From positions 160,001 to 224,000 of the forward strand of contig JBFOMH010000017.1 of assembly GCA_040830765.1 (NCBI GenBank): a stretch of 64,000 nt of DNA, given 5' to 3'. The notes beneath the pieces were generated by a model, which ran no database searches, was not told the DNA's origin, and worked only from the letters and a program-made list of their open reading frames with translations. Both the position numbers and the translations under genes were made by a program. Of this stretch, positions 2,398-61,445 are shown piece by piece; position 1 is the stretch's first letter; every line of letters starts with the position of its first letter. The stretch comes from Puniceicoccaceae bacterium (GTDB lineage Bacteria; Verrucomicrobiota; Verrucomicrobiia; Opitutales; Oceanipulchritudinaceae).

Positions 2398-4287
2398 CTA
2401 CAGCTTGCCGACCCCGGCCCCTGCTGTGACAATCGCGGGCACATCCTCGACCGGGTCCAGCGTGTACTGGTAATCCCCGTCAAACTCGATGTCGATCGTC
2501 GAGGTGGTCGGCTTGTTGTTGTCAACATTGACAAAGATGTTGTTGTTCACCTCGTAGCCGCCTGCTGGATTTGAGCTGTCAAACCAGTAGCCGATGGCCC
2601 CGTCAACATTGTTGAAGTAGTTGTTTTCAATGAGCATCTTGGCATTGGTGCGTACATTAATGGCGGAACTGATGTTCTCGAAGTAATTGTTGTAGACATG
2701 CGCGTAACCGCCACGGTAAAGCGGGTGACGCGAACCTCCGTCATGAAACCAGTTGTGGTGGAAGATCACCTTCCGGTCGGGAAGGGCATCAAGTCCATCA
2801 TTACTTCCGACAAGGATAGTCTTGTGGGTGTCATAGATCTCGTTCCATGAGACAATGACGTACATGGCATCGTTCTTGATGCTCAGTAACTCGTCGAACT
2901 TGTCCTTGTCCGGGTTGATATTGAAGGGCTCGTTGTAGAGCGTGCAGTGGTCAATTTTGACGTAGCGACCGTTGTTGACCTGGATGGCATCCCGGGCCAG
3001 CACGTAGCGGACGGTCAGGTTCTGGATGATGACGTTTTCGCCCTGGACGGCCAGGCCGACACCATCCAAAAGGCCATTTGTACCGACTCCAATGATGGAA
3101 ATGTCCCGCATACCTGAGCTGATACTGGCTTCGCGGCCGTTTTGACCAGCGGCAACCCAGTCGTCGTAGGATATGGTTCCGTCAACATAAATAATGGAAG
3201 GTTCCCCGGCAGTGCGTACCGCGGCCAAAGCGGTTACAAATTCCTCTGCATTGGTGACCGTGTGTGTATTTTCTGCTGTTGCACCCTCCCCACCGGTTAT
3301 GAGGGCCTCCATGGTGTCGAATCCCCGCACCTTTGAATCCATGTAGAGGTAGATGTCCTTGATGGTTACTTCACCCTGCCATGGCAATGTGATTTCAATA
3401 TAAGCGTCATCCTCCTGGTTGGTCAGGTAGGGTTCAAGCAGCATGTCCTGCTCCAGCACCCCGGAGGGCAGTCGAGTGTAGGCCGCTACATCGGTATCGC
3501 CGCGCTTCACGCGGACGTAGAAGCCGTTCGTGGTCGACGTCAAGTCGACATCGGCGTGCACGACTACACCACCATATCCACTGATATTCCGGAGGGCGTT
3601 GAAGTCCATATAGCCGGTGCCCTTGTACTGCCCGAAACGGATGTAGCGGTTGGCTGACCCACCCGGAAAGGTCAGGGTGTTTTTAAAGGTGATCCCGTCG
3701 GGTCCATGGGTCATCTGGATGTTATTGTCCACATCCATGAATTGGGCAATATAGTCGGTTCCAAGGTGCAGCGCGCTGGCATACTTTTCCCCAATTGATT
3801 CAGCTTCATGATTGGCGGCAAATTCGGCACTCAGGACAATGGCCTCCGGTGCCAAGGGGAGGGCACTGCCGGTGTTGGCCAGATAGACCCAGCCGCTGCC
3901 GGCGGCAATCTGGCTCTCGGTTACGTAGACAAATCCCTCTGAGGTGGAAAACCAGTACCAGCCGATCTCCGGAGTGGCTACCGGTATCAGGTTGAAGGCT
4001 GCCAGGTCTACCGCATACGCCCAGCCGCCTTGGTTCTTTACCTGGGAGGCTGGCATGTAGAGGTATTGGCCGACCATGGGCGTGTAGACCCAGTCGTTTC
4101 GTCCGTCGCTTCCACACCAAATCCAGCCCAGAAATCCTGTTTCCGTATAAACCCAACCGGAATCCGCCATGATGGGCCCATCCCAGCGAACGTCCTGTGC
4201 CTCCAGGGATGGTGAGGTCACTCCGGTAACGAGCAGCGCCAGTGCGAATGAAATTTTTATGAAATTGGTGTAATTGGGGGTGTGCAT
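2398..4287 (-). CDS. Secreted polysaccharide lyase family 1 (pectate lyase-like) with N-terminal Trp-rich modules
   Basis: Signal peptide ...SPSLEA|Q. C-terminal PL1 motifs NVIIQNL, VKIDHC, VIVSWN, HKTILVG, FHHNWF..GSRHPLYR, HVYNNYF, ENNYF and GAGVGKL. Confidence 0.85.
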   Translation of the reverse strand: MHTPNYTNFIKISFALALLVTGVTSPSLEAQDVRWDGPIMADSGWVYTETGFLGWIWCGSDGRNDWVYTPMVGQYLYMPASQVKNQGGWAYAVDLAAFNLIPVATPEIGWYWFSTSEGFVYVTESQIAAGSGWVYLANTGSALPLAPEAIVLSAEFAANHEAESIGEKYASALHLGTDYIAQFMDVDNNIQMTHGPDGITFKNTLTFPGGSANRYIRFGQYKGTGYMDFNALRNISGYGGVVVHADVDLTSTTNGFYVRVKRGDTDVAAYTRLPSGVLEQDMLLEPYLTNQEDDAYIEITLPWQGEVTIKDIYLYMDSKVRGFDTMEALITGGEGATAENTHTVTNAEEFVTALAAVRTAGEPSIIYVDGTISYDDWVAAGQNGREASISSGMRDISIIGVGTNGLLDGVGLAVQGENVIIQNLTVRYVLARDAIQVNNGRYVKIDHCTLYNEPFNINPDKDKFDELLSIKNDAMYVIVSWNEIYDTHKTILVGSNDGLDALPDRKVIFHHNWFHDGGSRHPLYRGGYAHVYNNYFENISSAINVRTNAKMLIENNYFNNVDGAIGYWFDSSNPAGGYEVNNNIFVNVDNNKPTTSTIDIEFDGDYQYTLDPVEDVPAIVTAGAGVGKL

Positions 4288-4786
4288 CCTTTGAATTCCT
4301 TGATTGTGGGAGACAGCAAATTATTCGAATTTGTTCCAACACTTGCGCGACCTTCGAGCAAATTCATTTTCATGAAAGAAGGTGAAATAAGCTGACGAGG
4401 TTTTCTGCCCAGGTTTGCCGACTGAGGGAAAGGGATAGGAGCTTTGTTCTCCCTGGCCTATTTCTGGTCCTTCCGGGTGGCAGGCGGGACTGCATTGAAA
4501 TATTCACTGGGCCCCTGCGGCGCGCTTATATGAGGAAACGTGTGCGATGATTTCACTACAGGTAGCCGGATTTACTGACTCTTGGATTCCATTGGAGCTC
4601 TTTAAAGCGGATCGATAACCTTCGAGATGAGAAAATATAAGGGCTGAGGCTCTAAAAAGCAGGTTGACTCCGGGGCTGTAATATTTATGCAAGTACTTAC
4701 GTGGAAGTAATTTCACTATTCCTTGAATCCGACCGCTTACGCTCGGCGTTAGCGGTGCTATCACGTTGCAAAAATTGGAGTCTTCA

Positions 4787-6691
4787 ATGAGAAAGAACCT
4801 GTCCCGCACACCTCGTAAACATAAACTCCCAATTTGGGCCGGCTTCCTCGCCTTGGCGATTCCGGCCTTTTTTGTTGCCCCGATAAATCTGTCGGCTGCT
4901 GATATGGCCGACCGAAGCCAGTCTTCGATGGTGGGTGAGACCTACCGCGTCGATGGTATTCTCTTTGTCTTCCAGAGGGAGCATCCTGAGAACCCCTCAG
5001 CGGGTAAACTCGCCGGCGTCCCAATCGAGCTGAGCAAGTCAGCCTCCGGTTATGCCGCTCCCCGAGGCGATGACTCAGATGTCCAAACCAGCGTGGCAAA
5101 TATTGGTGACTCAGCCGGGAGTCGACTCACCGGGGGTGCCATCCAGCATATCGCGACCTCGGTATTGACCTACTTGAACGAGTCGGGCTTGGCAGGTGTC
5201 TGGGTCGGGGCCCACCCGGGGGACATTGATCCGCAAACAGGTGAAGACCTTCGTCCGGGGAAGTCCGGAAACCTGCGCCTTCTGGTGCAAACGGCAGTCA
5301 TCGGCAAGGTGCGGACGCTTGCCCGGGGTGAGCGGGTGCCAACAGGCGACTCCGTGAACAATCCCGCTTACGATTGGATGCTGGAAGGTTCACCGGTCAA
5401 GCCGGGTGCCTCGTGGGCCGACTCCGCCCTTCTCAACAGGGATAAAATTGGCGACTACGCCCGCTGGCTCAGTCGCCATCCTGGCCGCCGGGTAGACATT
5501 GCAGTCTCTCCCATCCAAGACGAACCGGGAGCGGTGGCCCTCGATTATATTGTCCAGGAACAGAAGCCAGTTTCCGTATGGGCCCAGGCAACCAATACCG
5601 GGACTGAGCAAACCGCCGACTGGCGGGGCTCCTTCGGGCTGCAGAACAACCAGTTCACCGGCAACGACGACCAGATCGAGTTGTTCTATTCCTCAGCCGG
5701 GATGGACAGTACCCAGAATTTAAGCGCGCGTTATGAAGCGCCCCTGATGAATAACCGGAATGTTCGTGTGCGCATCAATGGTGGCTGGAACAAGTATACT
5801 GCCTCCGATGTTGGATTTGGTGAACTGGATTTCAAGGGCAAGGGATATAACATCGGACTCAGCGGCGTGCACAATATCCGCCAGCGTGGTTCCCTTTTTG
5901 TCGACCTCGTCTATGGTCTGTCGCTTGAGAACACCACCGTCGATAACCAGGTTGTCGGGCGCGAGGGTGAAGGTGAGTTCCTTTTCCCGATGATTGGGCT
6001 GGAATGGGAAAGGTACACCCGCTTTGGCAACACCATTGGCGGTGTCAGCCTGCGCCACAATGTCCTCGATATTGAGCAGGACGACCTTGATGCCCTTGGC
6101 CGCACCCTGGCCGAGGATAAGTTCACCATCCTCTCCTGGTACTTCTCCCATAACTTCTATGTGGACCGGATCCTCGACAAGGAGGCCACCAGCCTGGCTC
6201 ATGAGATTGCCATTTCCCTTGGCGGTCAAACCTCCTTCGGTTCACGGACGCCCCCGAACTACCAGAAAACGATCGGTGGTATGTACACGGTCCGCGGTTA
6301 TCCCGAGTCGGTCATAGCCGGCGACAATGTGGCCCACGGATCGATCGAGTACAAAATGCACATCCCGCAGTTAATGGGGGTTTCCCAGGACCCCGGTACC
6401 GGCCCCATATTCGGTGGGCCCTTCCGCTACCTCCCGCAGTATCCCTACGGGGTGACGGACTGGGACCTGGCCCTCAAGGGCTTTATCGATGTCGGTTATG
6501 CCGGAGCGGCTGACAAGCTCGACTTTGAATTTGACGAGACACTCGTCGGTGGCGGGATTGGCTTTGAGCTTCGCTACCGCCGCAATTTCTTTGTCTCCGT
6601 CGACTGGGGTGTCGCCATGAAGGACACCAAGTATCCGGCAGTAACCGACGGAAGTTCCCGGGTCAGCATTTCCGCGACCGTCATGTATTGA
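4787..6691 (+). CDS. TpsB outer-membrane transporter (ShlB/FhaC/HecB family)
   Basis: ATG at 4787 after GGAG, signal peptide, POTRA-like region, TNTGTEQT, FTGNDDQ, the Omp85/TpsB loop-6 motif IGGMYTVRGYPE, and a C-terminal beta-strand ending in Tyr. It lies directly upstream of a TPS-domain protein. Confidence 0.88.
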   Translation: MRKNLSRTPRKHKLPIWAGFLALAIPAFFVAPINLSAADMADRSQSSMVGETYRVDGILFVFQREHPENPSAGKLAGVPIELSKSASGYAAPRGDDSDVQTSVANIGDSAGSRLTGGAIQHIATSVLTYLNESGLAGVWVGAHPGDIDPQTGEDLRPGKSGNLRLLVQTAVIGKVRTLARGERVPTGDSVNNPAYDWMLEGSPVKPGASWADSALLNRDKIGDYARWLSRHPGRRVDIAVSPIQDEPGAVALDYIVQEQKPVSVWAQATNTGTEQTADWRGSFGLQNNQFTGNDDQIELFYSSAGMDSTQNLSARYEAPLMNNRNVRVRINGGWNKYTASDVGFGELDFKGKGYNIGLSGVHNIRQRGSLFVDLVYGLSLENTTVDNQVVGREGEGEFLFPMIGLEWERYTRFGNTIGGVSLRHNVLDIEQDDLDALGRTLAEDKFTILSWYFSHNFYVDRILDKEATSLAHEIAISLGGQTSFGSRTPPNYQKTIGGMYTVRGYPESVIAGDNVAHGSIEYKMHIPQLMGVSQDPGTGPIFGGPFRYLPQYPYGVTDWDLALKGFIDVGYAGAADKLDFEFDETLVGGGIGFELRYRRNFFVSVDWGVAMKDTKYPAVTDGSSRVSISATVMY

Positions 6692-38580: not shown

Positions 38581-41500
38581 ATGCCTAAGATTAGCGGCAT
38601 TCTCACCATTTTTACCGCAATCCTGCCTTTCGCCCTTCCCCTGGCAGCCCAGGTGCCTGAAACAGGCACTATTGAAGGTCGTGTTTTCAATGAAATAACG
38701 AGGCGTTATGTCGTCAAGGCAGAGATCATGGTCGAAGGTACCCCGATCCGGGCCTTCAGTAATGAGTTCGGCGAATTTTCCCTGCGCAATGTGCCGGTTG
38801 GCCAGCAGGCGGTTACGGCATCCTTCACCGGGTTGGTTTCAAAGACAGTCCGGGTACAGGTCCAATCCGGTGAACCGGCTACTGCGAATTTCCGCTTTGA
38901 TCAACGAGTTGGCAGTGCGGAGACCATCTTTGAACTGGAGGAATTTGTCGTCAATGCGGACAACTTCCAGAGCATGGAGGAACTGGCCATCCATCAGGAG
39001 CGGCATTCGGTCAACTTGAAGCACGTTGTCTCGACGGAGGCTTACGGCATTGTCAGCCAGGGAAACATCGGGGAATTCGTAAAGTACATGCCCGGGGTGA
39101 CCATTGGTTATGGAGGCAGCAATGTGGCAGGAGGAACGTATGCTTCCGGTGCCGATGCCAATACCATCCAGATACGTGGTTTCAGCGCGCGCGAAACAAC
39201 GATCACCATTGACGGGATGCCGATTGCCAATGCCGCTCCCGGCACCCTCGATCCGGCCGTCGGGCTGGACATGATGTCGATCAACAATGCCGCACGGGTC
39301 GAGGTCATCAAGGTCCCGTCGCCGGACCAGCCAAACGCGGGAGTTGGAGGCACCGTCAACCTGATCAGCATGTCCGCCTTCGAGTATCCGAAACCGACCC
39401 TGCGGTTTCGCGTCTACCTGAGCATGAACTCGGAACAACTGGACATCTTTTCCAAAACCCCGGGGCCGATGAACAAGCCGACCTACAAGGCCCTGCCGAG
39501 TTTTAACATGACCTACGCGCATCCCTTTTCCGATCGCTTGGGCATATCGGTGACGCTGGCCTCTGACAATCAGGCCAACGCCAACTACACCCTGAAATCG
39601 AGAGTGCGCCGTCGCCCGGAGGATGGCAGGCCAACCCGGCGAACGGAATCGTCCGGATTCAAGATGGGTGGTGAGGACTTCAGCTACTGGCTGGTCAACG
39701 ATCCGCACTTTGAATCGTGGCAGGCAACCTACGGTGAGGACTGGACTCAATGGACCGAGGAGCAGTTTCTCGAAATGTACAGCTCTTCCGGGGCCAGCAG
39801 TTCGTTGGTAGAGACGCGCATGCGGCAGGTCAAACGGCTGCCACGCTATGACCAGCAGGGCAATCTCGTCGGTGCCTGGGCCCCATCGGACAAGGAGGCT
39901 TTTGAAGAGGAGCTTCCGTTATACTATGACGAGGAAGGTAATCTCGTTGGCCGTGTATTCAACGATTGGGGACATCCCTACGTGAACCGTGTCCAGGTCA
40001 CTGATTCGCCGCGTATTGCGCACCGGAACTCGGCGGCCTTCAAGGTGGACTGGCGGCCCATCGACGGATTCCTCCTTTCGGCCAATTACCAGATCTCGAC
40101 TTTCAATGATGAGGATGCCAATCGCCGGGTGCACCAGATTTCCGGGACGCCGGCGGAATACGGACCAAACTACCTTCTGAGCAATGACGGCGGTGTTCGT
40201 CTCGATACGGACGCCTTCGAGCGGGAAGGCATTACCCACAGCGCTTACATCAAAGCCAGTTATATCAAGGGACCTTGGGACATCCGCGGAAATCTCGGTT
40301 TTTCAACATCCAACAGTGACCTCCTTTCGGAAGAAAACGGCCATTTTTCAGTGATTGAAGTGAACATGGGAGGAATCGATTTCACTGAGTTTCTCGATAT
40401 CGACAAGGATGGCGTTCCGGGCAGTATCAATTACTATCGCAACCTGACAGACGGGGACGGAAACGTAACCGGCCGGGAGTTGATCGACATTGGCAATCTC
40501 TCCAACTACAGAATTGCCAACTTCGATCCGGACAATCCCAATGCGGGTACCCTGAAGGTCCGGTCCGGAGGGATTCGTTCCGAAAGCACGGTCAAGAGTG
40601 CCAAGCTGGATGTTCGGAGAGACCTCGACTTTATCCCGCGAAGCCTGATGCACCTTGCCATCAAGGTAGGGTTCGATTGGGAAGAACGGGAGAATATCAA
40701 GTCGGGTCGTGGAGTGAACTACGAGTACGTCTACCTCGGTGAGGAGGGCAAAGTTCTTTCACTCGCTGACTTTCGTGACGAGAAGTACCTCGGGGTGCAA
40801 CCCGGCTTCGGGCTCGACCCGCTTGAGTGGCCGGATCCTTTTGCCCTCTACCGGTATGCCCAGGAGTACCCGGGAGCCTTCAGTGATACCGACGACACAG
40901 TCCCGACCGGTTCTGGAGAGATGTCGGTGGCCGGGCACAACTACCTGGAACAAGTCAACACCTCCAAGTCCCTCACGGAGACCAAGTATGCCTACTATGG
41001 GCAATTGGAAGCAGACTTTTTCAACAACCGCTTGTCCATCGTTGGCGGCTTTCGCATGGGCTATGCCGAACGAAAGGGCTATGACCGTGGACAGGATAAT
41101 TTCTGGAACTACCTCCATTTCGACTATGACGAAAACGGTGATGGCATCCGGGACGTCTTCAAGGATTACGGGGACATTGAGATCGATCCCACCTATAACA
41201 CCGATATCATCGGGGAGTTCGATGTAACGGGCCCGCTCATTCTCCTGAGCGCATTGCGCACCCAGCGCGTCAATTCCTTTGACCAGCTGACGCCGGAATC
41301 CCAGCAGCGAATCCTGACCTGGTATGGCTATTATGAACAGGCGGGAGCCGTCTATGCGGACGGAGCCCCATTTATCGCCTCGGAGTTCGATCCCATCAAG
41401 AAGGGCTCCCTGAGGGCCACTCAATTCCAGTACCTCAAGGACTTCCCCATCAACCAGAAAGCCCAGGGTAAGCCGCAACCCATCATCAGCGCGGCCTATG

Positions 41501-42498
41501 ACATTACCGACAACCTCGTGGCCCGGGTATCCTGGTCAACCACGTATTCAAATCCTCCCTACGAATCGAGTGAGGGCGCTGGGGGAACATTGCGACGGGT
41601 ACAATTTATCGAGAATCCCGATGGCAGCGGAAGTATGTTTGTCACCAATCCCGAGTTGGAAATCTCCAAGACGGTAGGTTGGGACGTCGGACTCAGTTAT
41701 TACACCGATAGTGGCGGCAAGTATTCCATCACACTTTATCATCGCGAGGAGGAAGGAAGGCCCATTGACGTCTCCTACTCGCAAAGCGGCTCACTCGATG
41801 CCTGGGACTTCGTCATGGATTCCCTTGGGTACGGCCCCGGCAGTTATTTCTACGACAACGACTGGTCCGTCCGCACGTCGATCAATGCTGACGGAACGTT
41901 CATTGACTACGGATATGAGCTTGAAGGGCGGCAGGATCTCAGGAGCCTCGGTAACTGGGGGAAGTATGTCTACGTCTATGGAACTTTCTTCCAGCAGTTC
42001 CAAAAGGCCGGAAGCGTTCCCGAGGACGAGGAAGGCGATTTCAATATCTCCCTCAGCAATGAAAAGCGCATCAATGCCGCGGGCGGGATCAATATTGCCT
42101 ACAAGCGGCTGGAATTCAGGGTGAATGCCACCTGGCGCAATGAGCGGACACAGGATGGCGATGATGCCCTGATTAATGCCATCTTCTGGGATGATGCCAC
42201 CGTCGGGAATCCGGGATGGTACACCCCGAGTCCTGATGATGACGAGGTGGACGCCTATGAGAAGCGGATGCGACTGGTCCGGCCGGCGAGCCTGCAGGTG
42301 GACCTCTCCGCCAAGTTCCGCCTGACCAAGCACCTGACCCTTGATTTCTCGGCACGGAATATCACCCAGGATTATCCGGAGCCAATCTACGTCCGTGAAG
42401 ACGGGACGAAACTGCCATTCCTGGGTCATCTCCATGACGGAACGGAAAAGTCCCTCTACGGCATCAATTTCACGCTGGGCATCAGCGGTGTTTATTGA
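38581..42498 (+). CDS. TonB-dependent receptor with N-terminal carboxypeptidase-regulatory-like domain
   Basis: Signal peptide, TGTIEGRV..NEFGEFSLRNVP, FELEEFVV, plug motifs NIGEFVKYMPGV, IQIRG, ITIDG and RVEVIK...GVGGTVNL, and a C-terminal FTLGISGVY. Confidence 0.9.
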   Translation: MPKISGILTIFTAILPFALPLAAQVPETGTIEGRVFNEITRRYVVKAEIMVEGTPIRAFSNEFGEFSLRNVPVGQQAVTASFTGLVSKTVRVQVQSGEPATANFRFDQRVGSAETIFELEEFVVNADNFQSMEELAIHQERHSVNLKHVVSTEAYGIVSQGNIGEFVKYMPGVTIGYGGSNVAGGTYASGADANTIQIRGFSARETTITIDGMPIANAAPGTLDPAVGLDMMSINNAARVEVIKVPSPDQPNAGVGGTVNLISMSAFEYPKPTLRFRVYLSMNSEQLDIFSKTPGPMNKPTYKALPSFNMTYAHPFSDRLGISVTLASDNQANANYTLKSRVRRRPEDGRPTRRTESSGFKMGGEDFSYWLVNDPHFESWQATYGEDWTQWTEEQFLEMYSSSGASSSLVETRMRQVKRLPRYDQQGNLVGAWAPSDKEAFEEELPLYYDEEGNLVGRVFNDWGHPYVNRVQVTDSPRIAHRNSAAFKVDWRPIDGFLLSANYQISTFNDEDANRRVHQISGTPAEYGPNYLLSNDGGVRLDTDAFEREGITHSAYIKASYIKGPWDIRGNLGFSTSNSDLLSEENGHFSVIEVNMGGIDFTEFLDIDKDGVPGSINYYRNLTDGDGNVTGRELIDIGNLSNYRIANFDPDNPNAGTLKVRSGGIRSESTVKSAKLDVRRDLDFIPRSLMHLAIKVGFDWEERENIKSGRGVNYEYVYLGEEGKVLSLADFRDEKYLGVQPGFGLDPLEWPDPFALYRYAQEYPGAFSDTDDTVPTGSGEMSVAGHNYLEQVNTSKSLTETKYAYYGQLEADFFNNRLSIVGGFRMGYAERKGYDRGQDNFWNYLHFDYDENGDGIRDVFKDYGDIEIDPTYNTDIIGEFDVTGPLILLSALRTQRVNSFDQLTPESQQRILTWYGYYEQAGAVYADGAPFIASEFDPIKKGSLRATQFQYLKDFPINQKAQGKPQPIISAAYDITDNLVARVSWSTTYSNPPYESSEGAGGTLRRVQFIENPDGSGSMFVTNPELEISKTVGWDVGLSYYTDSGGKYSITLYHREEEGRPIDVSYSQSGSLDAWDFVMDSLGYGPGSYFYDNDWSVRTSINADGTFIDYGYELEGRQDLRSLGNWGKYVYVYGTFFQQFQKAGSVPEDEEGDFNISLSNEKRINAAGGINIAYKRLEFRVNATWRNERTQDGDDALINAIFWDDATVGNPGWYTPSPDDDEVDAYEKRMRLVRPASLQVDLSAKFRLTKHLTLDFSARNITQDYPEPIYVREDGTKLPFLGHLHDGTEKSLYGINFTLGISGVY

Positions 42499-42541: not shown

Positions 42542-44818
42542 ATGAAGAACAAATCCACAATCGCCAATATCCTCAGGACAGTCGCTGTGCCCGTCCTGTT
42601 GATGCTTGCCACGGTGGCCTCTGTCGAGGCAGATACCCTGACCTATGAAGGCTTTGACATTACCCCGGGAGAGCTTGACAACACCATCGGGGAAACCAGC
42701 TGGGGCTGGGGAAAGATTATCGGCATTTACGACAAGACCTGGTGGGCATGGGACCAGGTTAATAATGATTTCTTCCACGCCATCAGCGATGGTGGTCTGG
42801 AGTATCCCGGCCTGCCTTCCAAGGGGAACGCTTTCGAGTTCACCCTCGAGACCCCGAATGCCGACTACAACAAGGTCTACCGGGAATTGAACAAGTTTTA
42901 TTCCTACGCCTCGACCGGGCAACTCTGGTTCAGTGCCATCGTCAAACCGAAGATTGACGGGGACCCGACCGGGTACGGTTGGTTTCAGGTCTGTCTTTCC
43001 AGCTTCCACAATGCGGTATACTTCGGCGTCTCCAATTCCGATGACCAGACGGTATGGTCCGGCGGTGGCGAACGCATGTACATCCGCACGGATGAGAATC
43101 CTGACGGAATCCAGGGTGCGAAATGGGCCTACAGCGAAGTCCCGATCGAGGATGGTGTGGAAGCCTTCCTGGTCATGCACCTCGATTTCGACAACAAACT
43201 GGCTCACTTCTACGTCAATCCTCCAGTGGATACTGAGGACCCCGGAGAGCCGGTGGCCGACTTTGTCATGCTAACGGACCTGTACGTCGATAAGGTGATG
43301 ATGTGGATCAACAACAATGGGCCCTCCATTGAAGGTCCCGGGGCGGACTACATCGGTACGCAGGTGGACGAAATCCGCCTGGGTGATACCTATGCCTCCG
43401 TGGCCGCTGGTGCCGACCTGACCGATCCCGGAGGAGGCGAAGTGGATGTTGACCCGCCCGTGATCACCGGACCTACCGGTGAACCGGGAGCGGCTACGTC
43501 CTCGGTTTCGATCCCGGAGAATGTCGTCAAGGCAGCCACCATGGAAGCTGATGAGACCGTTACCTGGTCCATTTCCGGTGGGGCGGATGCCGACTTCTTT
43601 ACCATTGGTTCCGGAACTGGTGGACTCAGCTTCAAGGTATTTGCCGACTTTGAAACCCCGCTCGATGCAGATGGCAACAACGAGTATGTCGTCACCGTCC
43701 AGGCGATGGATGAAGCCGGGAACACTTCCACCCAGGATGTCCTCGTCAGTGTCACCGACATTGTCGATGAAATTCCACCAGTTGTCACGGGCCTTTCCGG
43801 TGCTCCGGGGGATCCGGAGACATCCGCCAGCGTCAATGAGAACACAGTCCTCGTCGGGACTTATACTGCTGACAAGACCGTGACCTGGGATCTCTCGGGT
43901 GGCATGGACAGGTCATTTTTCCAGATCGGGGCGGAAACAGGCGAATTGAGCTTCCTGGCAGCGCCTGACTTCGAGGATCCGGTCGACGACGGAGCAGACA
44001 ACATCTATGAAGTCGAGGTCCGGGCCCGGGATGAATCGCTAAACGCCGGTATCCAGCTGGTCTTCGTTACGGTTCTGGACGTCAATGAAGACGGGGATTT
44101 GACTCCGCCTGTCATTACCGGTTTCTCGGGCAGTGCAGGGGATGCGGCATCCTCCGCCAGCATCGATGAGAATACTACGGATGTCGGATCCCTGACCGCT
44201 GACGAGGAGGTGACCTGGCTCATTTCCGGTGGCGCCGACAGTGCTGCCTTCGAGCTCGATATCAGCTCGGGTGCACTTGCATTCCTATCCGCCCCCGACT
44301 TTGAAGAACCCGGGGATGCGGACATGAACAATGATTATGTGGTCGAAGTCGAGGCCACCGATACCTCCGGAAATGCCTCAACCCATACCGTCACCGTGAC
44401 GGTCCTTGATGTTGAGGAAATCGTCACTTGGGGATTCTGGACACCAGACGACCTTGGCTGGATCGACACCAATGCCGATGGAGGGCTCTTCATGGGCTGG
44501 GTCAATGTCCACCAGCAGCCATGGGTCTGGGTCATCGCAATGAACAAGTACATCTACATGCCCGACGGTTTCATCTCGGATTCCGGTTCATGGAGCTACA
44601 CACCGGCCACACTGGACAATCCGGTTCCGGGCGAGTGGGGCTACTGGTCCAAGGCGGAACTGGATTGGGTCGACACCACCGATGGCTTCCTTGGCTGGGT
44701 CAATGTTTTCGACGATCCTTGGATTTTCAGCCAGTCCATGGGCAATTACCTGTATCTCTCACAGGACGCCCTGACCTCGTCGGGTGCCTGGCTCTATGTC
44801 CTGTTGAATAAGCCGTAA
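42542..44818 (+). CDS. Secreted protein: lectin-like N-domain, 3 cadherin-like repeats and 2 C-terminal Trp-rich modules
   Basis: Signal peptide ...SVEA|D. Cadherin-like units PPVITG..EN..VTW.ISGG.D..FF.I...G.LSF...DFE.P.D...N.Y.V.V.A.D start at ~43454, 43775 and 44105. Confidence 0.82.
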   Translation: MKNKSTIANILRTVAVPVLLMLATVASVEADTLTYEGFDITPGELDNTIGETSWGWGKIIGIYDKTWWAWDQVNNDFFHAISDGGLEYPGLPSKGNAFEFTLETPNADYNKVYRELNKFYSYASTGQLWFSAIVKPKIDGDPTGYGWFQVCLSSFHNAVYFGVSNSDDQTVWSGGGERMYIRTDENPDGIQGAKWAYSEVPIEDGVEAFLVMHLDFDNKLAHFYVNPPVDTEDPGEPVADFVMLTDLYVDKVMMWINNNGPSIEGPGADYIGTQVDEIRLGDTYASVAAGADLTDPGGGEVDVDPPVITGPTGEPGAATSSVSIPENVVKAATMEADETVTWSISGGADADFFTIGSGTGGLSFKVFADFETPLDADGNNEYVVTVQAMDEAGNTSTQDVLVSVTDIVDEIPPVVTGLSGAPGDPETSASVNENTVLVGTYTADKTVTWDLSGGMDRSFFQIGAETGELSFLAAPDFEDPVDDGADNIYEVEVRARDESLNAGIQLVFVTVLDVNEDGDLTPPVITGFSGSAGDAASSASIDENTTDVGSLTADEEVTWLISGGADSAAFELDISSGALAFLSAPDFEEPGDADMNNDYVVEVEATDTSGNASTHTVTVTVLDVEEIVTWGFWTPDDLGWIDTNADGGLFMGWVNVHQQPWVWVIAMNKYIYMPDGFISDSGSWSYTPATLDNPVPGEWGYWSKAELDWVDTTDGFLGWVNVFDDPWIFSQSMGNYLYLSQDALTSSGAWLYVLLNKP

Positions 44819-48611: not shown

Positions 48612-50198
48612 TCAAAGACCCCTGGCCGCGTAAATCCATGGCCAGGTGCTTGAGCCGGTCCAGAACCAGATTCCGGAAGTGTGCCGGGACCAGTAACCTT
48701 GACCGCTTTCGTAAAGGTACATCCAGCCGAGGTCCTCATGGTGGATCCATGGGTATTCGAGACCGTTGAGTGTCCCCCACCAGTTTGAAACGGTGGAACC
48801 ATCCGCTTCCATGGGAGCTGCCTGGAGGGGCTCCGGTAATTGCGGCGAGCGAACATCCATGACCAGGACCAGGTGATCCGAAATGAAGGTGTCCCCGGCC
48901 TCCAAATTCAGTTGCTCGAGAGCAGATGAAGGGAGGACGTCGGTATCGAGGATGAATGCCTTGTCACGGAAGAGGGTGGCGGGATCAAAAAGAATGAAGT
49001 CCAGGCGGCTGGAGCCCCAGAAGGAACCGAGGCTACCCCAGGTGTATTGGTCATACTCATACAAATGGCGGGGACTGGCCATCTCCAGGGGAACCAGGGA
49101 GGTCGTCAGGTCGATCAGTTCGGGGGCACGCCCACCGGAGTTCAAGTCACCACCAATGATCAGTGACTGGGGGAATGACGTGGTATCCTGAAGCCGGGTC
49201 CCCAGCAATTGAATCAGGTTGGCGGCCTCGTTGACCCGGCCAGACTCGTTCTCGCAACAAGGGAAGTGGTTGTTGGCGATCAGCAGGTCCGCCCCGATGG
49301 CTTCGCCGGTCAGGTGGCGGCTGACGATATTGCCATTGGAAGGCCAACTGTTCTCTATGGGAAAACGGCTCAGGGTGATGCAGTCATGCATGCGGGCGAT
49401 TTCCCACTGCTGGTCCGAGGCGGTTTGCAGGTTGTCCTGAAAATAACGTAGCAGAAGAGCCGTGGAGACATCGTAGAATTCCTGGAAGAGGACAATGTCC
49501 GGGTTCAGGGCCTCGAGGATGCGCAGGAAGGCAGCTTGGTTGTCCGACTTGAATGGGGCGTCGCGTAACACATTCCAGCTGACGATGCGGATGGCGCGGG
49601 GATCCTTGAAGGGATCAATCGGCATCGGCTGGACAGACAACGGCCCTTCAAGTGTGTAGGAAAACGCGGAACCTGAATCCGGGACACGATCCCGGCTGTT
49701 CTCCTCCTTGAGGATAATGTGAACAGGGTCCCGCGTCTGGGCAGCTGGAAGCGCTTCCAGACTGATGGCAATTTCATGAATGGTGGCGGATGCGTCAGGG
49801 GCAATGCGCTCGACCAGATTGCCCCGGCCGATGTCTCCCCGAGAGGTCAGCGTGCTGGTCCCCCGGTTACGGTCGAAGTCCCAGATGAAATCCATCCCGC
49901 GGCCACTGTCGGGAAATCCCGTCGCTGGATTGTCATCGGCGTCAATCAACAGGGTCAGGTCGGCGGTTCGCAGGTTAACCGGTGCGGAAAACTCCACCAG
50001 CAGGTAAAGGTTGTAGGCGTCATTGGTGGCGCTGACCCTGACAAAATCGGGTCCGGCGAGCAGGGTGTCGCTCGTGGCATCAGTCAAGGTGCTGGCATCG
50101 ATAGGCCAGTCGTCCTCAAGGCCATCGACGAGGGTCCCGTTTAACTCGCCCACTGCGAAAAGAACCAATGGAAGGATCAGCTGGTGCAGATTACCCAT
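48612..50198 (-). CDS. Endonuclease/exonuclease/phosphatase (EEP) family protein, probably exported, with a Trp-rich C-terminal module
   Basis: IRIVSWNV, PDIVLFQE, NHFPCC, IIGGDLN, SRLDFILF and SDHLVL. Short hydrophobic N-terminus; alternative start at 50243. Confidence 0.82.
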   Translation of the reverse strand: MGNLHQLILPLVLFAVGELNGTLVDGLEDDWPIDASTLTDATSDTLLAGPDFVRVSATNDAYNLYLLVEFSAPVNLRTADLTLLIDADDNPATGFPDSGRGMDFIWDFDRNRGTSTLTSRGDIGRGNLVERIAPDASATIHEIAISLEALPAAQTRDPVHIILKEENSRDRVPDSGSAFSYTLEGPLSVQPMPIDPFKDPRAIRIVSWNVLRDAPFKSDNQAAFLRILEALNPDIVLFQEFYDVSTALLLRYFQDNLQTASDQQWEIARMHDCITLSRFPIENSWPSNGNIVSRHLTGEAIGADLLIANNHFPCCENESGRVNEAANLIQLLGTRLQDTTSFPQSLIIGGDLNSGGRAPELIDLTTSLVPLEMASPRHLYEYDQYTWGSLGSFWGSSRLDFILFDPATLFRDKAFILDTDVLPSSALEQLNLEAGDTFISDHLVLVMDVRSPQLPEPLQAAPMEADGSTVSNWWGTLNGLEYPWIHHEDLGWMYLYESGQGYWSRHTSGIWFWTGSSTWPWIYAARGL

Positions 50199-50255
50199 GA
50201 CAGGTCCAGCTGGACTTTTCGTTTTGTTGGCAAACAGCCTCACCGCAACCTTACC

Positions 50256-53128: not shown

Positions 53129-53812
53129 ATGTTTAGTATGGATTTGGTAACGGCTTCCCTCGATCTTCCCTCGCTTGCCTTGTTGCAGGCATTTTCCCAA
53201 TCCAACCTGGCCGGCAAGGCAATCGTCTGCCTGCTTCTTATTTTCAGTCTGCTTGCCTGGACGGTGATGGTCGGCAAGTACCTTGAACTGGCCAAGTTCC
53301 GGGACCAGAACCGCTCCTTCCAGCGGCGACTCGATGCCACGGACCGGATCCTCCAGATTGATCCCCAGTTGCCGGGCGCGATGGGCCCCTACGCCCACCT
53401 CGGCCGGGAAGCGCTCACCACTTATCATGGCAGTGCTCGAAGCAATCATGCTATCGGGCATGTCGAAAACGCCATTCAGCGGGCTGTCTCGTGGTCCCTG
53501 CTGCGTTACGAAAGCCGTATGACCCTGCTTGGTTCGATTGTTTCAGGCGCTCCTTTTCTTGGTCTCCTGGGAACGGTCTGGGGCGTCATGGATGCCTTTG
53601 GCTCCATATCGGGATCGGAGGGGGCCAGTATTGCCACCCTCGCTCCGGGCGTCTCCGGTGCACTCCTGACGACCGTCGCCGGCCTCCTGGTGGCCATCCC
53701 TTCCGTTTTCGGGTACAATTACCTCCTTACCCAGGTCAAGCTGCAGATCACCGACCTGGAGAACTTCGCCAGCACCTTGGCGGACCGCGTTGAACTGGAA
53801 GCCAACGACTGA
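53129..53812 (+). CDS. MotA/TolQ/ExbB proton channel protein
   Basis: SGAPFLGLLGTVWGVM..F, LAPGVSGALLTTVAGL.VAIP and YNYL. Confidence 0.92.
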   Translation: MFSMDLVTASLDLPSLALLQAFSQSNLAGKAIVCLLLIFSLLAWTVMVGKYLELAKFRDQNRSFQRRLDATDRILQIDPQLPGAMGPYAHLGREALTTYHGSARSNHAIGHVENAIQRAVSWSLLRYESRMTLLGSIVSGAPFLGLLGTVWGVMDAFGSISGSEGASIATLAPGVSGALLTTVAGLLVAIPSVFGYNYLLTQVKLQITDLENFASTLADRVELEAND

Positions 53813-53817
53813 TTTCC

Positions 53818-54231
53818 ATGGCCCGTTCCTTCCATCGCAGCAAGCCGCTGTCGGCGATGTCCGAGCTCAACGTCACTCCGTTGATCGACCTCGCCTTTGC
53901 CTTGCTGATAATCTTCATGATCACCGCCCCGTTGCTGCAGCAGACCATTGATATTCAGGTCCCCACGGAATCCGCCCGCCCCCAGCCACAGGACCGGGAA
54001 GAGCCCCTGATGCTCTCCATTGATCCCAGCGGGCAGTTTTTCTGGGGAACGGATGCCGTCAGTGACAACGAGATGAAGTCCCGCCTGGCCCTTATGGCGG
54101 ATACCGACGAACCGCCGGTGGTCCAAATCCGGGCTGATTCGCAATTGCCTTACCAGCGGGTGGTCGACCTGCTGGACCTCGTCAAGGGGGCCGGGTTAAG
54201 CAAGATCAGCCTCGAAACCAAGGCCCGATAG
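53818..54231 (+). CDS. ExbD/TolR biopolymer transport protein
   Basis: SELNVTPLIDLAFALLIIFMITAP and IRAD..LPYQRVV.LLD. Confidence 0.92.
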   Translation: MARSFHRSKPLSAMSELNVTPLIDLAFALLIIFMITAPLLQQTIDIQVPTESARPQPQDREEPLMLSIDPSGQFFWGTDAVSDNEMKSRLALMADTDEPPVVQIRADSQLPYQRVVDLLDLVKGAGLSKISLETKAR

Positions 54232-54240
54232 GGAAAGGCC

Positions 54241-54990
54241 ATGGCCATGGAGCGCCAGACCCGGCAGTCGGTTACTATTTCCGTCCTCATTCATGGCGGT
54301 TTTGTTGCCCTTGCGCTGCTTTTCCTCTTGCTCGAGCGCTGGCTGGAGGAGCCGGAGCCAATCGTCTTTGAACTGGTCGCCGGGGCGCCTGCCCCAGTCA
54401 CCCAGGAGCGCCCGGCCGAGCCGATTGAAGAATCACCACTTGAACCGCTCGAAGTGCCGGATACGGAGCCCATCAAGCCCCTGCCGGATGTGCCCGAGTT
54501 GCCGGAACCGGAGCCTGATCCGCCGCCTGAGCCGGAACCCGAACCGGTAAAGACCATTTCCGCCGAGGAATTCTTCCGCAACCGCGACCGGCCGGACCGC
54601 GTCCAGCGGGTCCAGCAGCCCCGGACTCGACCGGTCACCGCCCCGGAAATCGAGACCAACGTCCGGGACCGCCTGTCCCAGCTCCCGGAAATCCAGATCC
54701 AGGGAGCGGAAATCGGCCAGTTTGAGAGCAATGATGCCCTCCTGCGCTACCTCGCCGCCCTCCGGCAGCAGATTCAGGCAGCCTTTGAGCCGACCGGTTC
54801 CAACCTCCAGGCGGAGGCCTATTTCACGGTCACCGCCCAAGGCCGCATCACCAATGCGCGGATCCATAAGTCATCCGGCGATGCCGCCTTCGACCGTTCT
54901 GCCATCCGCACCCTCCAGGTCGCCCGCACCCCCGGTCCGCCGCCGGGCGGCAGGGACTATACCTTCTCCCTCGTCTTCCGGAGCGAGTAG
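54241..54990 (+). CDS. TonB/TolA-like energy transducer
   Basis: N-terminal TM with S..IH, a Pro/Glu-rich linker and a C-terminal SSGD.AFD.SA domain. Confidence 0.85.
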   Translation: MAMERQTRQSVTISVLIHGGFVALALLFLLLERWLEEPEPIVFELVAGAPAPVTQERPAEPIEESPLEPLEVPDTEPIKPLPDVPELPEPEPDPPPEPEPEPVKTISAEEFFRNRDRPDRVQRVQQPRTRPVTAPEIETNVRDRLSQLPEIQIQGAEIGQFESNDALLRYLAALRQQIQAAFEPTGSNLQAEAYFTVTAQGRITNARIHKSSGDAAFDRSAIRTLQVARTPGPPPGGRDYTFSLVFRSE

Positions 54991-57298: not shown

Positions 57299-57466
57299 TG
57301 GTTTTCCTTTCGGTGCATTGGCAGTTCTTTCAGCCTGGTAACTTGGGAGAGAACGTTCGTCCGTCAATTGAGGCCACACAAAAATAATTCCTTCCCTTTG
57401 CGGCCAAGGTCACAGGGGTGAAATTAATCCGTTTACCTGCAGGCGGCCTGAGCGTCAGCCAACGAC

Positions 57467-58531
57467 CTATTGGCCCAATATCTGGCCGGAGTGTGGCATC
57501 TTGAGGGTTTTCCCGAGGACCAGGGTTCCATGGACATGCAAATCGGTCTGGGGATGTGATGGACCGAACTGCCCGCGGTTCAGCATGGCGACGATGAGAT
57601 CGATTCCCTGTCGGCCGATTGTCTTGCCGTCTTCATGGATGCCGCAGCGATCGGGGTCATTGGAAAACAGGGAAGTCCAGGCCAGGGATAGGTCTTCCGG
57701 GACGCGAATACCTGCCTCCTTGAGGACGGATTCATAGTCGTCGTTTTGGTGCAGCACGAGGGCATCAAAGCGGTATTCCCTGACCCATTCCAGGAACTTT
57801 GGCTTGGTCTCCTCGTTGAGGTCTTCCTGAAAAAGTGGGGCCGGAAGGTGATCGGGAAGGTATTCCTGATGAGCTCCCAGGAAACCTGCCGCGAATCCGA
57901 AATTAACCCGTTGGTTGATCCAGCGTGGGCAGGCAAGTCCAATTCGCTTGAAGCCTGACCGGACAAGAAATTTGAAAAGCGTAATCGTGTTACCAACCTG
58001 ATCCGGGGTTACGGAAGGCAGATTTGTCGCCCGCAGACTGTGCCCGAGACGCACAGCGGAGAACTTCTCCCAGTCGAATTCAAGGGTTTGTACCCCCGCG
58101 TCCAACGGCGGGATGAGCACGCCCTTGATACCCCGGGCGATGAGAATACTGGTCGCCCGCTTGTCTGTCATGCGAGGGTTCTGAAGCCAGAAGTTCTCCA
58201 GCTTGTACCCCAGCTCCTCAACGCGCTCCTTTGCCCCGCAGTAACATTCCCAACCGATGCCTCTCTGTCCCTGGGTCGGTTCCGGAGTTGGATGGGTGTT
58301 TATCCAGGCAATGGTCGCGGAACGCCGGTCAATCTTCTTGCTGCAGCGGTAGGCATTCAAGGCCGCCAGTATCGGATCCGGTTTGTATCCCAGCTCCTTT
58401 GCCGCCTCACTTACCCGCTTCTTTGTCTTTTCACTGATCCGGGGCGAGTTCCTCAACGCTTCCGCCACCGTCGTGTAATGCATCCCGATGTGTTTCGCGA
58501 TGTCACGGGTCGTTATCCGTTTCATGTTCAT
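57467..58531 (-). CDS. LacI-family transcriptional regulator
   Basis: ITTRDIAKHIGMHYTTVAEALRNSPRISEKTKKRV...ELGYKPDP HTH plus a sugar-binding domain. AGGAAGG RBS before ATG 58531. Confidence 0.9.
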   Translation of the reverse strand: MNMKRITTRDIAKHIGMHYTTVAEALRNSPRISEKTKKRVSEAAKELGYKPDPILAALNAYRCSKKIDRRSATIAWINTHPTPEPTQGQRGIGWECYCGAKERVEELGYKLENFWLQNPRMTDKRATSILIARGIKGVLIPPLDAGVQTLEFDWEKFSAVRLGHSLRATNLPSVTPDQVGNTITLFKFLVRSGFKRIGLACPRWINQRVNFGFAAGFLGAHQEYLPDHLPAPLFQEDLNEETKPKFLEWVREYRFDALVLHQNDDYESVLKEAGIRVPEDLSLAWTSLFSNDPDRCGIHEDGKTIGRQGIDLIVAMLNRGQFGPSHPQTDLHVHGTLVLGKTLKMPHSGQILGQ

Positions 58532-58859
58532 TTTCCTTCCTGTATAAAAATGGCTTTCAGCCGCCCCGTCAACGCATCTCCTACAGAAAGGAAATTCATC
58601 GGTAGCTTGGCTTTGGAAGAGGAAGGAAGGCGGGAAGGGCTTGCTTGTCAGATCCAGCGACCGTGGTGACATTTTTGGAGCCCGCAATCATACAGTAAGG
58701 ACGGCAACAACCTTCAAATCCCGGGGCTGTCAGCAGATAGTTTCTGACAGAGAGGTGCCCCGATCCACTACTCCTGCGAGGAAAGGCTCCTGACGGGTGA
58801 TGCCTGGGCCATGGACCGGGGAATATCTCCTCAACCCTGAACAGAACGAACCCAAGACA

Positions 58860-61445
58860 ATGAAGGAAATGAGACAAATCCCAAGATTCCCCAAGACCAC
58901 CTTGATGGCCACTTTGGCGACCGTGGCGTTTTTCAGTGGGCCGGTACAGGCCGACTGGCAATTGATAACCGATTTTTCCACCGAAGCACGTGAAGATGTG
59001 TACGCATGGAAGCGCTTCGGATATGGCACCCTGTACTTTGACGGCCTTGATGTTACGGATGCGACCAACCGCGCCCTCTACATGGACGGCGAAGAGCCGG
59101 ACGAAAACCGCGGCAATACCATCCATGTTGCGATGCCACTGCCCGAAGGCGGTGTAGCCGAAGGTGCCGATGCCACCCTGAAGTTTGATTTTTTCACCTA
59201 TGGTGCAGCGTCGCAGTTCCTGATTGGCCTGAGCGATGTGGCCATCACCGTTGATGATAACCTTACGCTGGATAACGGCCGGTTGCTGACCCCGAATGCC
59301 TTTGGCGATTACGAGACCACATCACGCATGCGCACCACATTTGATGCCCGCGAAGGAAACCTCTATGTCGTCTCGGAAGAAACCATCCCGGTCGGCGAAT
59401 GGATGACCTGTTACCAGTACATCGACAACGCGACGGATACCTATGAAATCTACATCAAGACGCAGGCGGACTCCGAACCGCGTCAGCTCATTGCTGAAGG
59501 CATATTCAGCTTCGCTTTCCGCAACGGTACAACGGATGCCCTGGAGACCCTGTTCCTGGCCGCGACCCGCGGAACGGGAGATGCCTATACGGACGTTTTC
59601 GTCGTGGACAACATTTACATCGACCTGGCTGGCCGGAATGCCGAGCTCCCGGAACCGGTAACTGAGCCCAAGACGGAGGCCCTCGGTTATCCTCTTCAGG
59701 ATGGCTACATTGATACCGCTGACTGGCTGGGCTGGCTTTATGCTGAAGAAGATCCGTTCTTCTGGAACATCACCTGGAACAACTGGTGCTACGTTGACGA
59801 GGCTGGATTTGACCAGAAAGCTGGCGGCTGGGTCTATTTCTACTACGGCGATACACCGTGGGAAGACTGGATCATTGGCCAGGACGGCAATGTCGACACC
59901 GGCAATTTCATGCAGTGGATCTACATCGCCGACGGCACAGATTACGTCTACAGCTATACGCTGGCCCGCTGGATCTACATGCCGCAGCCAAGCGCCGGGA
60001 ACCCGGGCGCATGGGCCTATGTTGCCCCGTTAAGTATTATCCCCGCCGCTAACTATACAATTACCGGGACAACGATTGCCCCGCTGATTGACGGCATTGC
60101 CAGCGAAGGCGAATGGGCCGATGCAACGGTCATCAGCCTGACCTACGACGCGCTTGTGACAAATGGTATCGGGACCAGCAAGATTGACCGCGATGCGGGC
60201 TCACCGCAGCCGGACGCTGTTCGCGCGGAAGGCACGGCCTACATGACGGCCACCGCCTACGGCATCTACCTTGGATTTGATATCACCGATGGGGACATTA
60301 CGCCGAATCCCGGATTTGGAGCGAGTGGCAACACCTATGATGGAGTCCAGATTGGCATCGATGTGAATCCCGAGCCGGTCGACCGGACCTCAACGGTCCT
60401 GCTGGACATCAATCCGGTATCGGAAGTCGAAGGCAACCCGACCAATGTCTATGCCCGCTGGGCCATTGCCGGTTATGATCCTGCATGGGGTGTCCAGGCC
60501 TCCTCGACCCTGACCGAAACGGGTTATTTCGTGGAAACGGTCATCCCGTGGTCCTTCGTGACCTCCTTCGGGGTAGAAAACCCGCTCGATGCCGGTTCCC
60601 TTCTGAAGCTGACCCTGATTGTCGTGGACCGCGACGAAACTGGAGCCGTGCGTGAACTGCTCTGGGACAGTGGCGAAGGAACGATTTCCATCGGAAATGC
60701 CGCCACGTGGCCGGATGCAGTCATTGGTGAGGACCTTGGCCAGGTGCCGGGCAGTTACTCGATTCCGAAGGTTGTAACGGCACCAACTGTCGACGGGACC
60801 ATTGGTGAAGGTGAGTGGCTTTATGCCACACATACCGCCGCCACCTATGAGAACTGGATCGAAACCAACGGTGGAACCAGCCGGTTGGACCGTGACACCG
60901 CAATGTCCAATCCGGACGCAGAGCGATCCGAAGGGGACATCTACATGGCTGCCACTGATGAAGCGCTCTACTTCGGGGCTATCATCAACGATGCCACTCC
61001 CTATTGGAACACCGAGTTTGGCAACGCCAGTAACAACAATGACGGGGTGCAGCTTTGCATCGACTTGAATCCGAATTCCGTTGACCGCTCAACCGCAACC
61101 CTCTGGGACTTCACTCCGGTCACCTCTGTTGGTGGTGAACTGACCGGGCCAGCCAATATCTTTACCCGCTTTGCGCTGGCAGGATATGATGCAGCCTGGG
61201 GTGTTGAAGCTGCCGGCAGCTTGTTTGAAGGCGGCTACATCATCGAGGTGAAGATGCCCTGGCAGACGCTGCGGGACATCGGCTTCGACAATCCGCTCGA
61301 CGCGGGTTCCCTCTTCAGGATCGGTTTCATTGTCGTCGACATGGGTGAGGATGGCGTTGCCAATGACCTCATCATCGATTTCGGCTCCCGTGTCTGGCAA
61401 GTAGCCAATACGGAGCTGTGGAACAATGCAGTCCTGGATGACTGA
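58860..61445 (+). CDS. Secreted modular protein: lectin-like N-domain, 2 Trp-rich modules and 2 tandem CBM9-like domains
   Basis: Signal peptide ...PVQA|D. Duplicated AP.IDG...GEW...LY.G..I.D...DGVQ..ID..P...GY..E..IPW domains at ~60050-60730 and ~60750-61442. No catalytic domain recognised. Confidence 0.75.
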   Translation: MKEMRQIPRFPKTTLMATLATVAFFSGPVQADWQLITDFSTEAREDVYAWKRFGYGTLYFDGLDVTDATNRALYMDGEEPDENRGNTIHVAMPLPEGGVAEGADATLKFDFFTYGAASQFLIGLSDVAITVDDNLTLDNGRLLTPNAFGDYETTSRMRTTFDAREGNLYVVSEETIPVGEWMTCYQYIDNATDTYEIYIKTQADSEPRQLIAEGIFSFAFRNGTTDALETLFLAATRGTGDAYTDVFVVDNIYIDLAGRNAELPEPVTEPKTEALGYPLQDGYIDTADWLGWLYAEEDPFFWNITWNNWCYVDEAGFDQKAGGWVYFYYGDTPWEDWIIGQDGNVDTGNFMQWIYIADGTDYVYSYTLARWIYMPQPSAGNPGAWAYVAPLSIIPAANYTITGTTIAPLIDGIASEGEWADATVISLTYDALVTNGIGTSKIDRDAGSPQPDAVRAEGTAYMTATAYGIYLGFDITDGDITPNPGFGASGNTYDGVQIGIDVNPEPVDRTSTVLLDINPVSEVEGNPTNVYARWAIAGYDPAWGVQASSTLTETGYFVETVIPWSFVTSFGVENPLDAGSLLKLTLIVVDRDETGAVRELLWDSGEGTISIGNAATWPDAVIGEDLGQVPGSYSIPKVVTAPTVDGTIGEGEWLYATHTAATYENWIETNGGTSRLDRDTAMSNPDAERSEGDIYMAATDEALYFGAIINDATPYWNTEFGNASNNNDGVQLCIDLNPNSVDRSTATLWDFTPVTSVGGELTGPANIFTRFALAGYDAAWGVEAAGSLFEGGYIIEVKMPWQTLRDIGFDNPLDAGSLFRIGFIVVDMGEDGVANDLIIDFGSRVWQVANTELWNNAVLDD

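Follow-up and report, generated by a model that had tools for sequence, protein, structure and literature searches.

In a 64,000-nucleotide stretch of the genome of a Puniceicoccaceae bacterium of the Verrucomicrobiota (contig JBFOMH010000017.1 of assembly GCA_040830765.1, positions 160001-224000; hereafter, the window), three otherwise unrelated proteins with export-like N-termini share a Trp/Tyr-rich segment, which we term module A. The existence of this module is confirmed far above the level of chance, and scans of its passengers and of its taxonomic range bear out the view, taken in a first-pass annotation of the window, that it is a discrete and mobile domain which is restricted to one lineage and attached to otherwise unrelated exported proteins. 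Module A is new as a family, while modular surface-retention or sorting tails are as a kind already well known. The function that we tentatively favour, at what we consider close to an even chance, is that of a non-covalent cell-surface retention module for Sec-exported proteins.

Module A in the Window and in the Host Genome

The first-pass annotation had described one aromatic pattern common to a pectate lyase, a cadherin-repeat protein and a CBM9-containing protein, and each of these carriers has a Pfam passenger domain of its own. All the copies were found where they had been placed, and the five full copies align significantly with a profile built without them (leave-out E <= 6.5e-8). The carriers and copies are as follows (aa, amino acids).

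2398-4287 (-): PL1 pectate lyase gene, 629 aa, N-terminal carrier; PF00544 at aa 396-558, E 1.5e-31
4012-4185 (-): module A, full copy, PL1 protein aa 35-92; hmmsearch E 4.3e-16, leave-out E 6.5e-8
3880-3981 (-): module A, half copy, PL1 protein aa 102-136 (aligned 109-136), profile positions 27-54; full-profile E 3.6e-8
42542-44818 (+): cadherin-repeat surface protein gene, 758 aa, two C-terminal copies; PF00028 in 3 stretches
44429-44602 (+): module A, copy 1, cadherin protein aa 630-687; E 1e-18, leave-out E 9e-13
44636-44800 (+): module A, copy 2, cadherin protein aa 699-753; E 4.2e-19, leave-out E 9.9e-14
58797-61445 (+): CBM9-containing protein gene, 882 aa, internal tandem; PF06452 in 2 stretches
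59682-59840 (+): module A, copy 1, CBM9 protein aa 296-348; E 6.4e-18, leave-out E 1.5e-12
59859-60023 (+): module A, copy 2, CBM9 protein aa 355-409; E 7.9e-20, leave-out E 4.5e-14

The window corresponds to C17:160001-224000 of a 3.99-Mb genome in 40 contigs (G000). A first profile made from the five full window copies was searched against all six-frame open reading frames (ORFs) of G000, in which it found dozens of additional copies, and was then iterated to convergence at 55 ORFs with 62 domains (E < 1e-4, G000); the alignment holds six half copies besides. The leave-out profile, built from 62 other aligned G000 segments with the three window proteins omitted (Z = 40,584 ORFs), recovers the five full window copies at E values of about 1e-14 to 6.5e-8, and the reversed ORF set yields no match at E <= 10 with either the full or the 5-seed profile. 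Because this control is empty and the leave-out profile recovers the full copies, the module is a confirmed observation. The half copy of the PL1 protein is borderline, with a leave-out E of only 0.018.

The arrangement of the copies is kept in relatives of the three window proteins. The full copy of the PL1 protein begins a few residues past a signal-peptide-like segment, and a PL1 paralogue (C27:41795-43912) has the same layout with an N-terminal module. The cadherin protein stops 5 aa after its second copy, and its tandem is retained in an orthologue (P0030) with 61% identity over the full length. The internal tandem of the CBM9 protein is likewise retained in orthologues with 81% (P0025) and 46% (P0018) identity.

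Sequence Features and Predicted Structure of Module A

Module A comprises 54 match positions (alignment A1, 60 copies), along which the motifs W-[AG]-G-Y-P (at the start), V-D-T-G, L-G-W, P-W-V-[YW]-S, W-[IL]-Y and a final G-x-W-x-Y occur in this order. The Thr of V-D-T, the Gly of L-G-W, the Tyr of W-x-Y and the last Trp of G-x-W-x-Y are near-invariant. Trp, Tyr and Phe together make up 22.5% of module residues, compared with 8.9% in a crude proteome, and Trp alone makes up 10.2%, compared with 1.6%. The mean net charge of the module is -4.9. AlphaFold2 models a single copy (cadherin copy 1) as a small beta domain of four short strands (pLDDT 90.1, pTM 0.76) and the tandem of the cadherin protein as one rigid unit (pLDDT 93.6, pTM 0.85). 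Module A is thus predicted to be an autonomous, acidic, aromatic-rich, all-beta domain of about 54 residues.

Searches of solved structures gave no convincing match for either model: the best Foldseek E value is 4.1 and the best VIA-align Z is 2.8 for the single copy, and 0.9 and 3.7, respectively, for the tandem. Choline-binding, dockerin, SLH and type IX secretion system (T9SS) C-terminal domain (CTD) folds are absent among the rows of these fold searches, in which small domains score low. The best match of the profile among PDB sequences is 7pl5 (E 0.014, with no single stretch significant), which we take to be a choline-binding module of the LytB type. This similarity may serve as a lead and does not amount to a relationship.

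The absence of a named family for module A, which the first-pass annotation had supposed, was borne out: no match to the module was found in Pfam or NCBIfam, nor among PDB sequences or PDB folds. Over the Trp/Tyr-rich stretches of the three window proteins there is nothing in Pfam (E <= 1) or NCBIfam, and a comparison of 60 copies with Pfam at E <= 10 gave no choline-binding, dockerin, SLH or carbohydrate-binding module (CBM) family. A tblastn search of plasmids gave no module match. The ESM Atlas offered only unnamed Verrucomicrobiota clusters (0.88-0.89) and no usable named cluster, a search for homologous proteins returned 13 matches with 'opacity protein-like surface antigen' as the sole source name, and cluster members bear no informative names. 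No description of the module was found in the literature searched, which did not extend to subscription journals.

Passengers and Export Signals

The passengers of module A are diverse. Among 51 carriers outside the window, 25 contain a Pfam family and 26 contain none, and no family covers the module itself. The glycan-active passengers are GH16 (three), GH88 (two), GH10, GH95, PL1, chondroitinase B, heparinase II/III and a sulfatase. The others are FGE-like (two), BNR_4, CAP (two), RCC1, BspA-type leucine-rich repeat (LRR; two), GDSL, GSDH, DUF4465 and CBM96, to which a multihaem cytochrome with an MtrC/MtrF-like domain and a weak DUF4185 match are to be added. The CBM_6, CBM9_1 and CBM96 matches in carriers lie outside the module.

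The N-termini of the carriers resemble Sec signals. A crude signal-peptide rule, which is lax, accepts 46/54 carriers and 1226/2825 other genes, and several of the 8 carriers that it misses are signal-like by eye. The earlier statement that carriers have no PEP-CTERM signal stands, as no feature of it (PEP motif, hydrophobic helix or basic cluster) occurs in the tails of the 55 carriers. A crude regular expression finds a lipobox-like motif in 2/54.

Position and Copy Number

Module A is mainly a C-terminal tail, because in 51/55 G000 carriers only 1-5 residues follow it. The remaining four are the window PL1 protein, its paralogue C27:41795-43912, the window CBM9 protein and one ORF that runs off a contig end. 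Two of the few positional exceptions are thus among the three proteins from which the module had first been described, and the position independence proposed for it there is not sustained. The same bias is seen beyond G000. A search of 1.84 billion cluster representatives from a global library gave 1028 matches (E <= 1e-3); of the best 150 representatives, 139 have the module no more than 12 residues from the C-terminus.

Tandem pairing, the other property by which the module had been characterized, is upheld: 85 of the same best 150 representatives have the module twice in full, and the median length of the spacer is 15 aa. The first and second tandem copies are unspecialised, in that copies from different proteins have 33% mean identity whichever positions are compared; copies inside one protein have 46%. 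The linkers upstream of the module are short, with much Gly, Thr, Pro and Glu, and no conserved motif that might be a cleavage site was found there. An orphan 70-aa ORF at C5:68295-68504(+), lying amid several carrier genes, consists of little beyond one module A copy, with neither passenger nor signal; it may be a gene remnant.

Alternation with Other C-Terminal Tails

PEP-CTERM, reportedly described by Haft in 2006 as an exosortase-linked sorting signal, and module A occupy the same junction in close paralogues from three protein families. Two adjacent paralogues on contig C12, one of them a carrier, have 57% identity as far as the junction, after which one has module A and the other the PEP motif, helix and basic cluster. 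At C34:15408-19491(+), four small exported paralogues lie in an array with the tails PEP-CTERM, PEP-CTERM, A and A, and those compared have 59-78% identity up to the junction. In G015, a genome of another genus, two paralogues of the N-terminal domain of the cadherin protein end differently, L163 with PEP-CTERM and L164 with module A; across the order, this N-terminal domain was found only in the own family, in 1/3 genomes besides G000.

In G000 as a whole, paralogues were found for 36/55 carriers, and for 17 of these 36 they include another tail type: PEP-CTERM in 4, the longer module B described below in 6 and an aromatic-aromatic-Arg tail in 9. The genome has 13 PF07589 (PEP-CTERM) matches, all in ORFs other than carriers, and 3 exosortases. 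Because PEP-CTERM and exosortases coexist with module A in this genome, the module is an additional system and not a replacement. Another genome of the family, G013 (94% complete), has 28 module A matches and no PF07589 match, and was considered as a case in which module A would be independent of exosortase; this was rejected, as G013 keeps 2 exosortase genes and so does not separate the two. Its PEP-CTERM signals may be divergent or its exosortases may have few clients.

Taxonomic Range

Among 40 relatives, module A is present in 22/24 genomes of its own family and in 0/16 genomes representing the other families of the order (one genome per family); the two own-family genomes without a match are 89% and 80% complete. 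In a 300-genome sample of the phylum, it is present in 5/5 genomes of the own family and in 0/295 of all other families. It was also absent from all five further genomes searched, namely those of a Pelagicoccus sp., an Opitutaceae metagenome-assembled genome (MAG), an Akkermansiaceae MAG, a Rubritalea MAG and an uncultured bacterium. The lineage restriction that had been suspected is therefore supported by the genomes sampled, in which module A is restricted to one family of Verrucomicrobiota.

Module B and Other Tails

Module B is a longer aromatic tail which was found through the paralogues of module A carriers. Its profile spans 81 positions. Of its 31 carriers in G000, 27 have it at the C-terminus and 4 near the N-terminus, and it has no match in Pfam or NCBIfam. 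A profile-profile comparison of A and B (hhalign) gives a probability of 87% and an E value of 3.9e-6 over 35 columns, suggesting that the two modules are probably related. Module B is present in 5/5 own-family and 3/295 other genomes of the phylum sample. Modules A and B together are carried by 86 G000 ORFs, 85 of which are among about 2910 crude gene calls (~3%).

A partial module B lies in the window, at the end of an EEP-family protein:

48615-50255 (-): EEP-family protein gene; PF03372 at aa 225-461
48618-48779 (-): partial module B ending the EEP-family protein, profile positions 1-54 of 81; E 8.4e-14, iE 7.7e-10 in the genome search

This segment had been read as a distant variant of module A ending an EEP nuclease. 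The segment is real, but it is a partial copy of the separate, longer module B.

Two further kinds of tail were observed in G000. The aromatic-aromatic-Arg-aliphatic tail, placed 1-7 residues ahead of the stop (examples at C12:27135-27494, C13:114894-115253 and C5:257505-257864), is found in 31 ORFs by regular expression and in 6 by a seed profile, which grew no further; it has no Pfam or NCBIfam match. Although it alternates with module A in the paralogue sets of 9 carriers, it is another sequence family, and its 6-seed profile matches no module A carrier. Another Trp-rich C-terminal stretch, in the frame C33:20683-22077 and three relatives, is missed by the A and B profiles; this set of 4 ORFs includes an RCC1 paralogue of a module A carrier.

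Gene Neighbourhoods

In the window, the cadherin-type carrier gene is preceded by a receptor gene:

38581-42498 (+): TonB-dependent receptor gene, 1305 aa; Plug, CarboxypepD_reg and TonB_dep_Rec_b-barrel domains

The receptor gene is directly upstream of the carrier gene (42542-44818), with a 43-nt gap. Of ten TonB-dependent-receptor-like genes found in G000 by similarity to one query, 4 have an A or B carrier directly beside them, where 0.058 would be expected per receptor gene (binomial P = 0.0017). The other pairs are on contigs C9, C13 and C26; three of the 4, including that in the window, are co-directional with gaps of < 50 nt. This arrangement resembles the pairing of receptors with surface binders. 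When neighbourhoods around carriers were clustered, only sulfatases (10) and a 580-aa family (6) recurred, and no candidate machinery or partner gene did so.

Two other loci of the window concern transport. An ExbB-ExbD-TonB cluster is located at 53129-54987(+), in the same window as the receptor-carrier pair. A gene for a ShlB/FhaC-type transporter at 4787-6688(+) is followed by an ORF of 7979 aa at 6772-30708(+), which has an N-terminal two-partner secretion (TPS) domain and FG-GAP repeats; together, the two genes look like a system for the two-partner secretion of a giant exoprotein.

Possible Function and Alternatives

Surface retention would proceed as follows. Once exported, the passenger would stay on the outside of the cell envelope because its tail would bind, non-covalently, an envelope component peculiar to the lineage. 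The likeliest partner would be a surface glycan, either lipopolysaccharide (LPS) or exopolysaccharide, bound via stacked Trp and Tyr side chains, and tandem and half copies might add avidity. Glycan-degrading enzymes, lectin-like binders by TonB-dependent receptors and the MtrC-like cytochrome could in this way be surface-held without a lipid or exosortase anchor, and module B, as a longer relative, might do the same job.

Several lines of evidence point in this direction. The PEP-CTERM swap, the diversity of the exported passengers and the receptor neighbourhoods suggest that the tail sets the destination of the protein and not its substrate. A folded binding module is favoured over a cleaved signal because N-terminal and internal copies are conserved, tandem copies are unspecialised, half copies exist and no junction motif is found. 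These two arguments together favour non-covalent surface retention. Known systems offer partial parallels. Choline-binding (CW_binding_1) repeats, like module A, consist of aromatic hairpin units with W-x-Y-type strands, in variable number and mostly at protein termini, and they retain proteins non-covalently on the surface, which is the role proposed here for module A. The host is diderm and is not known to have teichoic acids, so the ligand of the module must differ from that of choline-binding repeats. The analogy, on which the first-pass annotation had leaned, is not supported by database comparisons, in which only the non-significant 7pl5 echo (E 0.014) was seen: PF01473 and its relatives have no Pfam match in module copies (E <= 10) or in full proteins (E <= 1), and no choline-binding chain is among the Foldseek and VIA-align rows, in which so small a domain would score low in any case. 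PEP-CTERM (PF07589), like module A, ends unrelated exported proteins and shares its junction in close paralogues. It consists, however, of a short PEP motif, a membrane helix and a basic cluster, whereas module A is predicted to be a folded 54-residue beta domain with no hydrophobic helix, and unlike PEP-CTERM it also occurs in tandem, internally and N-terminally.

A number of points weigh against surface retention. The extreme C-terminal bias (51/55; 139/150) is the pattern expected of a sorting or secretion signal, and the tails that are swapped with the module are sorting signals themselves. How carriers would cross the outer membrane is unexplained, and they could be periplasmic. As the module is acidic, it is unlikely to bind anionic LPS or sulfated glycans electrostatically. 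The likeness to choline-binding repeats is not significant and has no fold match behind it. The signal-peptide rule is crude, the neighbour statistic depends on receptor genes gathered with a single query, and no machinery or partner gene recurs near carriers.

The C-terminal bias leads to the most serious alternative, namely that module A is a C-terminal secretion or sorting domain which is read by dedicated outer-membrane machinery, as the type IX CTD is, and is then removed or covalently attached. Besides the extreme C-terminal placement in most carriers and global representatives, the interchange with PEP-CTERM and with the aromatic-aromatic-Arg tail in paralogues would fit such a domain, and some 55 carriers per genome are within the range for sorting signals. 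Like module A, the type IX CTD (TIGR04183) is a folded beta domain with which many secreted enzymes and adhesins end, and in both cases a glycan forager has dozens of carriers per genome. A recent study of Akkermansia muciniphila (PMC13524802, 2026) describes a T9SS-like CTD on a surface sulfatase and suggests that a system comparable to T9SS may exist. The type IX CTD is nevertheless strictly C-terminal and present in a single copy, whereas module A is N-terminal in two PL1 paralogues, internal in CBM9 orthologues at 46-81% identity and frequently found as tandem and half copies that are equally conserved. The junction has no conserved motif, the surroundings of carriers show no recurring machinery gene, and TIGR04183 has 0 matches in G000, though control genomes are silent too. 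We regard a dedicated secretion or sorting domain as unlikely, though worth keeping in view.

Two other explanations start from the enzymes among the passengers. Module A might be an unclassified CBM that directs enzymes to a substrate (for example, a polysaccharide of algal cell walls or mucilage) instead of to the cell's own surface. Its richness in aromatic residues, its acidity and its attachment to many carbohydrate-active enzymes and a sulfatase speak for this, as do its tandem occurrence and its N-terminal, internal and C-terminal placement, in which it is like CBMs. A substrate-aiming role is at odds with the passengers that are not carbohydrate-active enzymes (the multihaem cytochrome, CAP, RCC1, BspA-type LRR, GSDH and FGE-like proteins), with the presence of the module on enzymes of unrelated substrates (GH10, GH16, GH88, GH95 and PL1) and with the PEP-CTERM swap in non-enzyme families; moreover, no CBM family held in Pfam and no PDB fold matches, and we consider it quite improbable. 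The module might instead act between proteins, as dockerins do, its copies pairing mutually or with a scaffold to build multi-enzyme complexes on the envelope. The tandem is predicted as one rigid unit (pTM 0.85), so that single copies might pair between molecules, and module A shares with dockerin (PF00404) its small size, its acidity and a mostly C-terminal place on a range of glycan-degrading enzymes within one organism. But the module does not match the Pfam dockerin family at E <= 10, its consensus shows no evident calcium-binding loop pattern, and no cohesin-like partner or repeat scaffold was found in the carrier neighbourhoods, which were the part searched; such pairing seems very unlikely.

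More broadly, modules A and B could be the attachment elements of an undescribed surface-display system specific to the family. A domain of new fold would bind a lineage-specific envelope glycan or an outer-membrane receptor, so that the cell would be covered by some 85 enzymes and lectins together with a cytochrome. This would replace lipid or exosortase anchoring and supply the surface glycan binders that pair with TonB-dependent receptors in a phylum not known to have SusD-type lipoproteins. This wider proposal is possible, and we put it forward with some doubt.

Significance

Module A offers a testable handle on the way in which Verrucomicrobiota expose large sets of glycan-degrading enzymes at their surface. 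Its size is small, its models are confident, some 55 candidate surface proteins per genome are marked by it, and nature provides paralogue pairs which differ only in having module A or PEP-CTERM as the tail. If the module does bind the envelope, this would explain how enzymes are retained in marine polysaccharide degraders, and these bacteria would have in it a display tag that needs no further design. One could then also predict where many 'hypothetical' proteins are located, including those among the 26/51 scanned carriers without a Pfam family.

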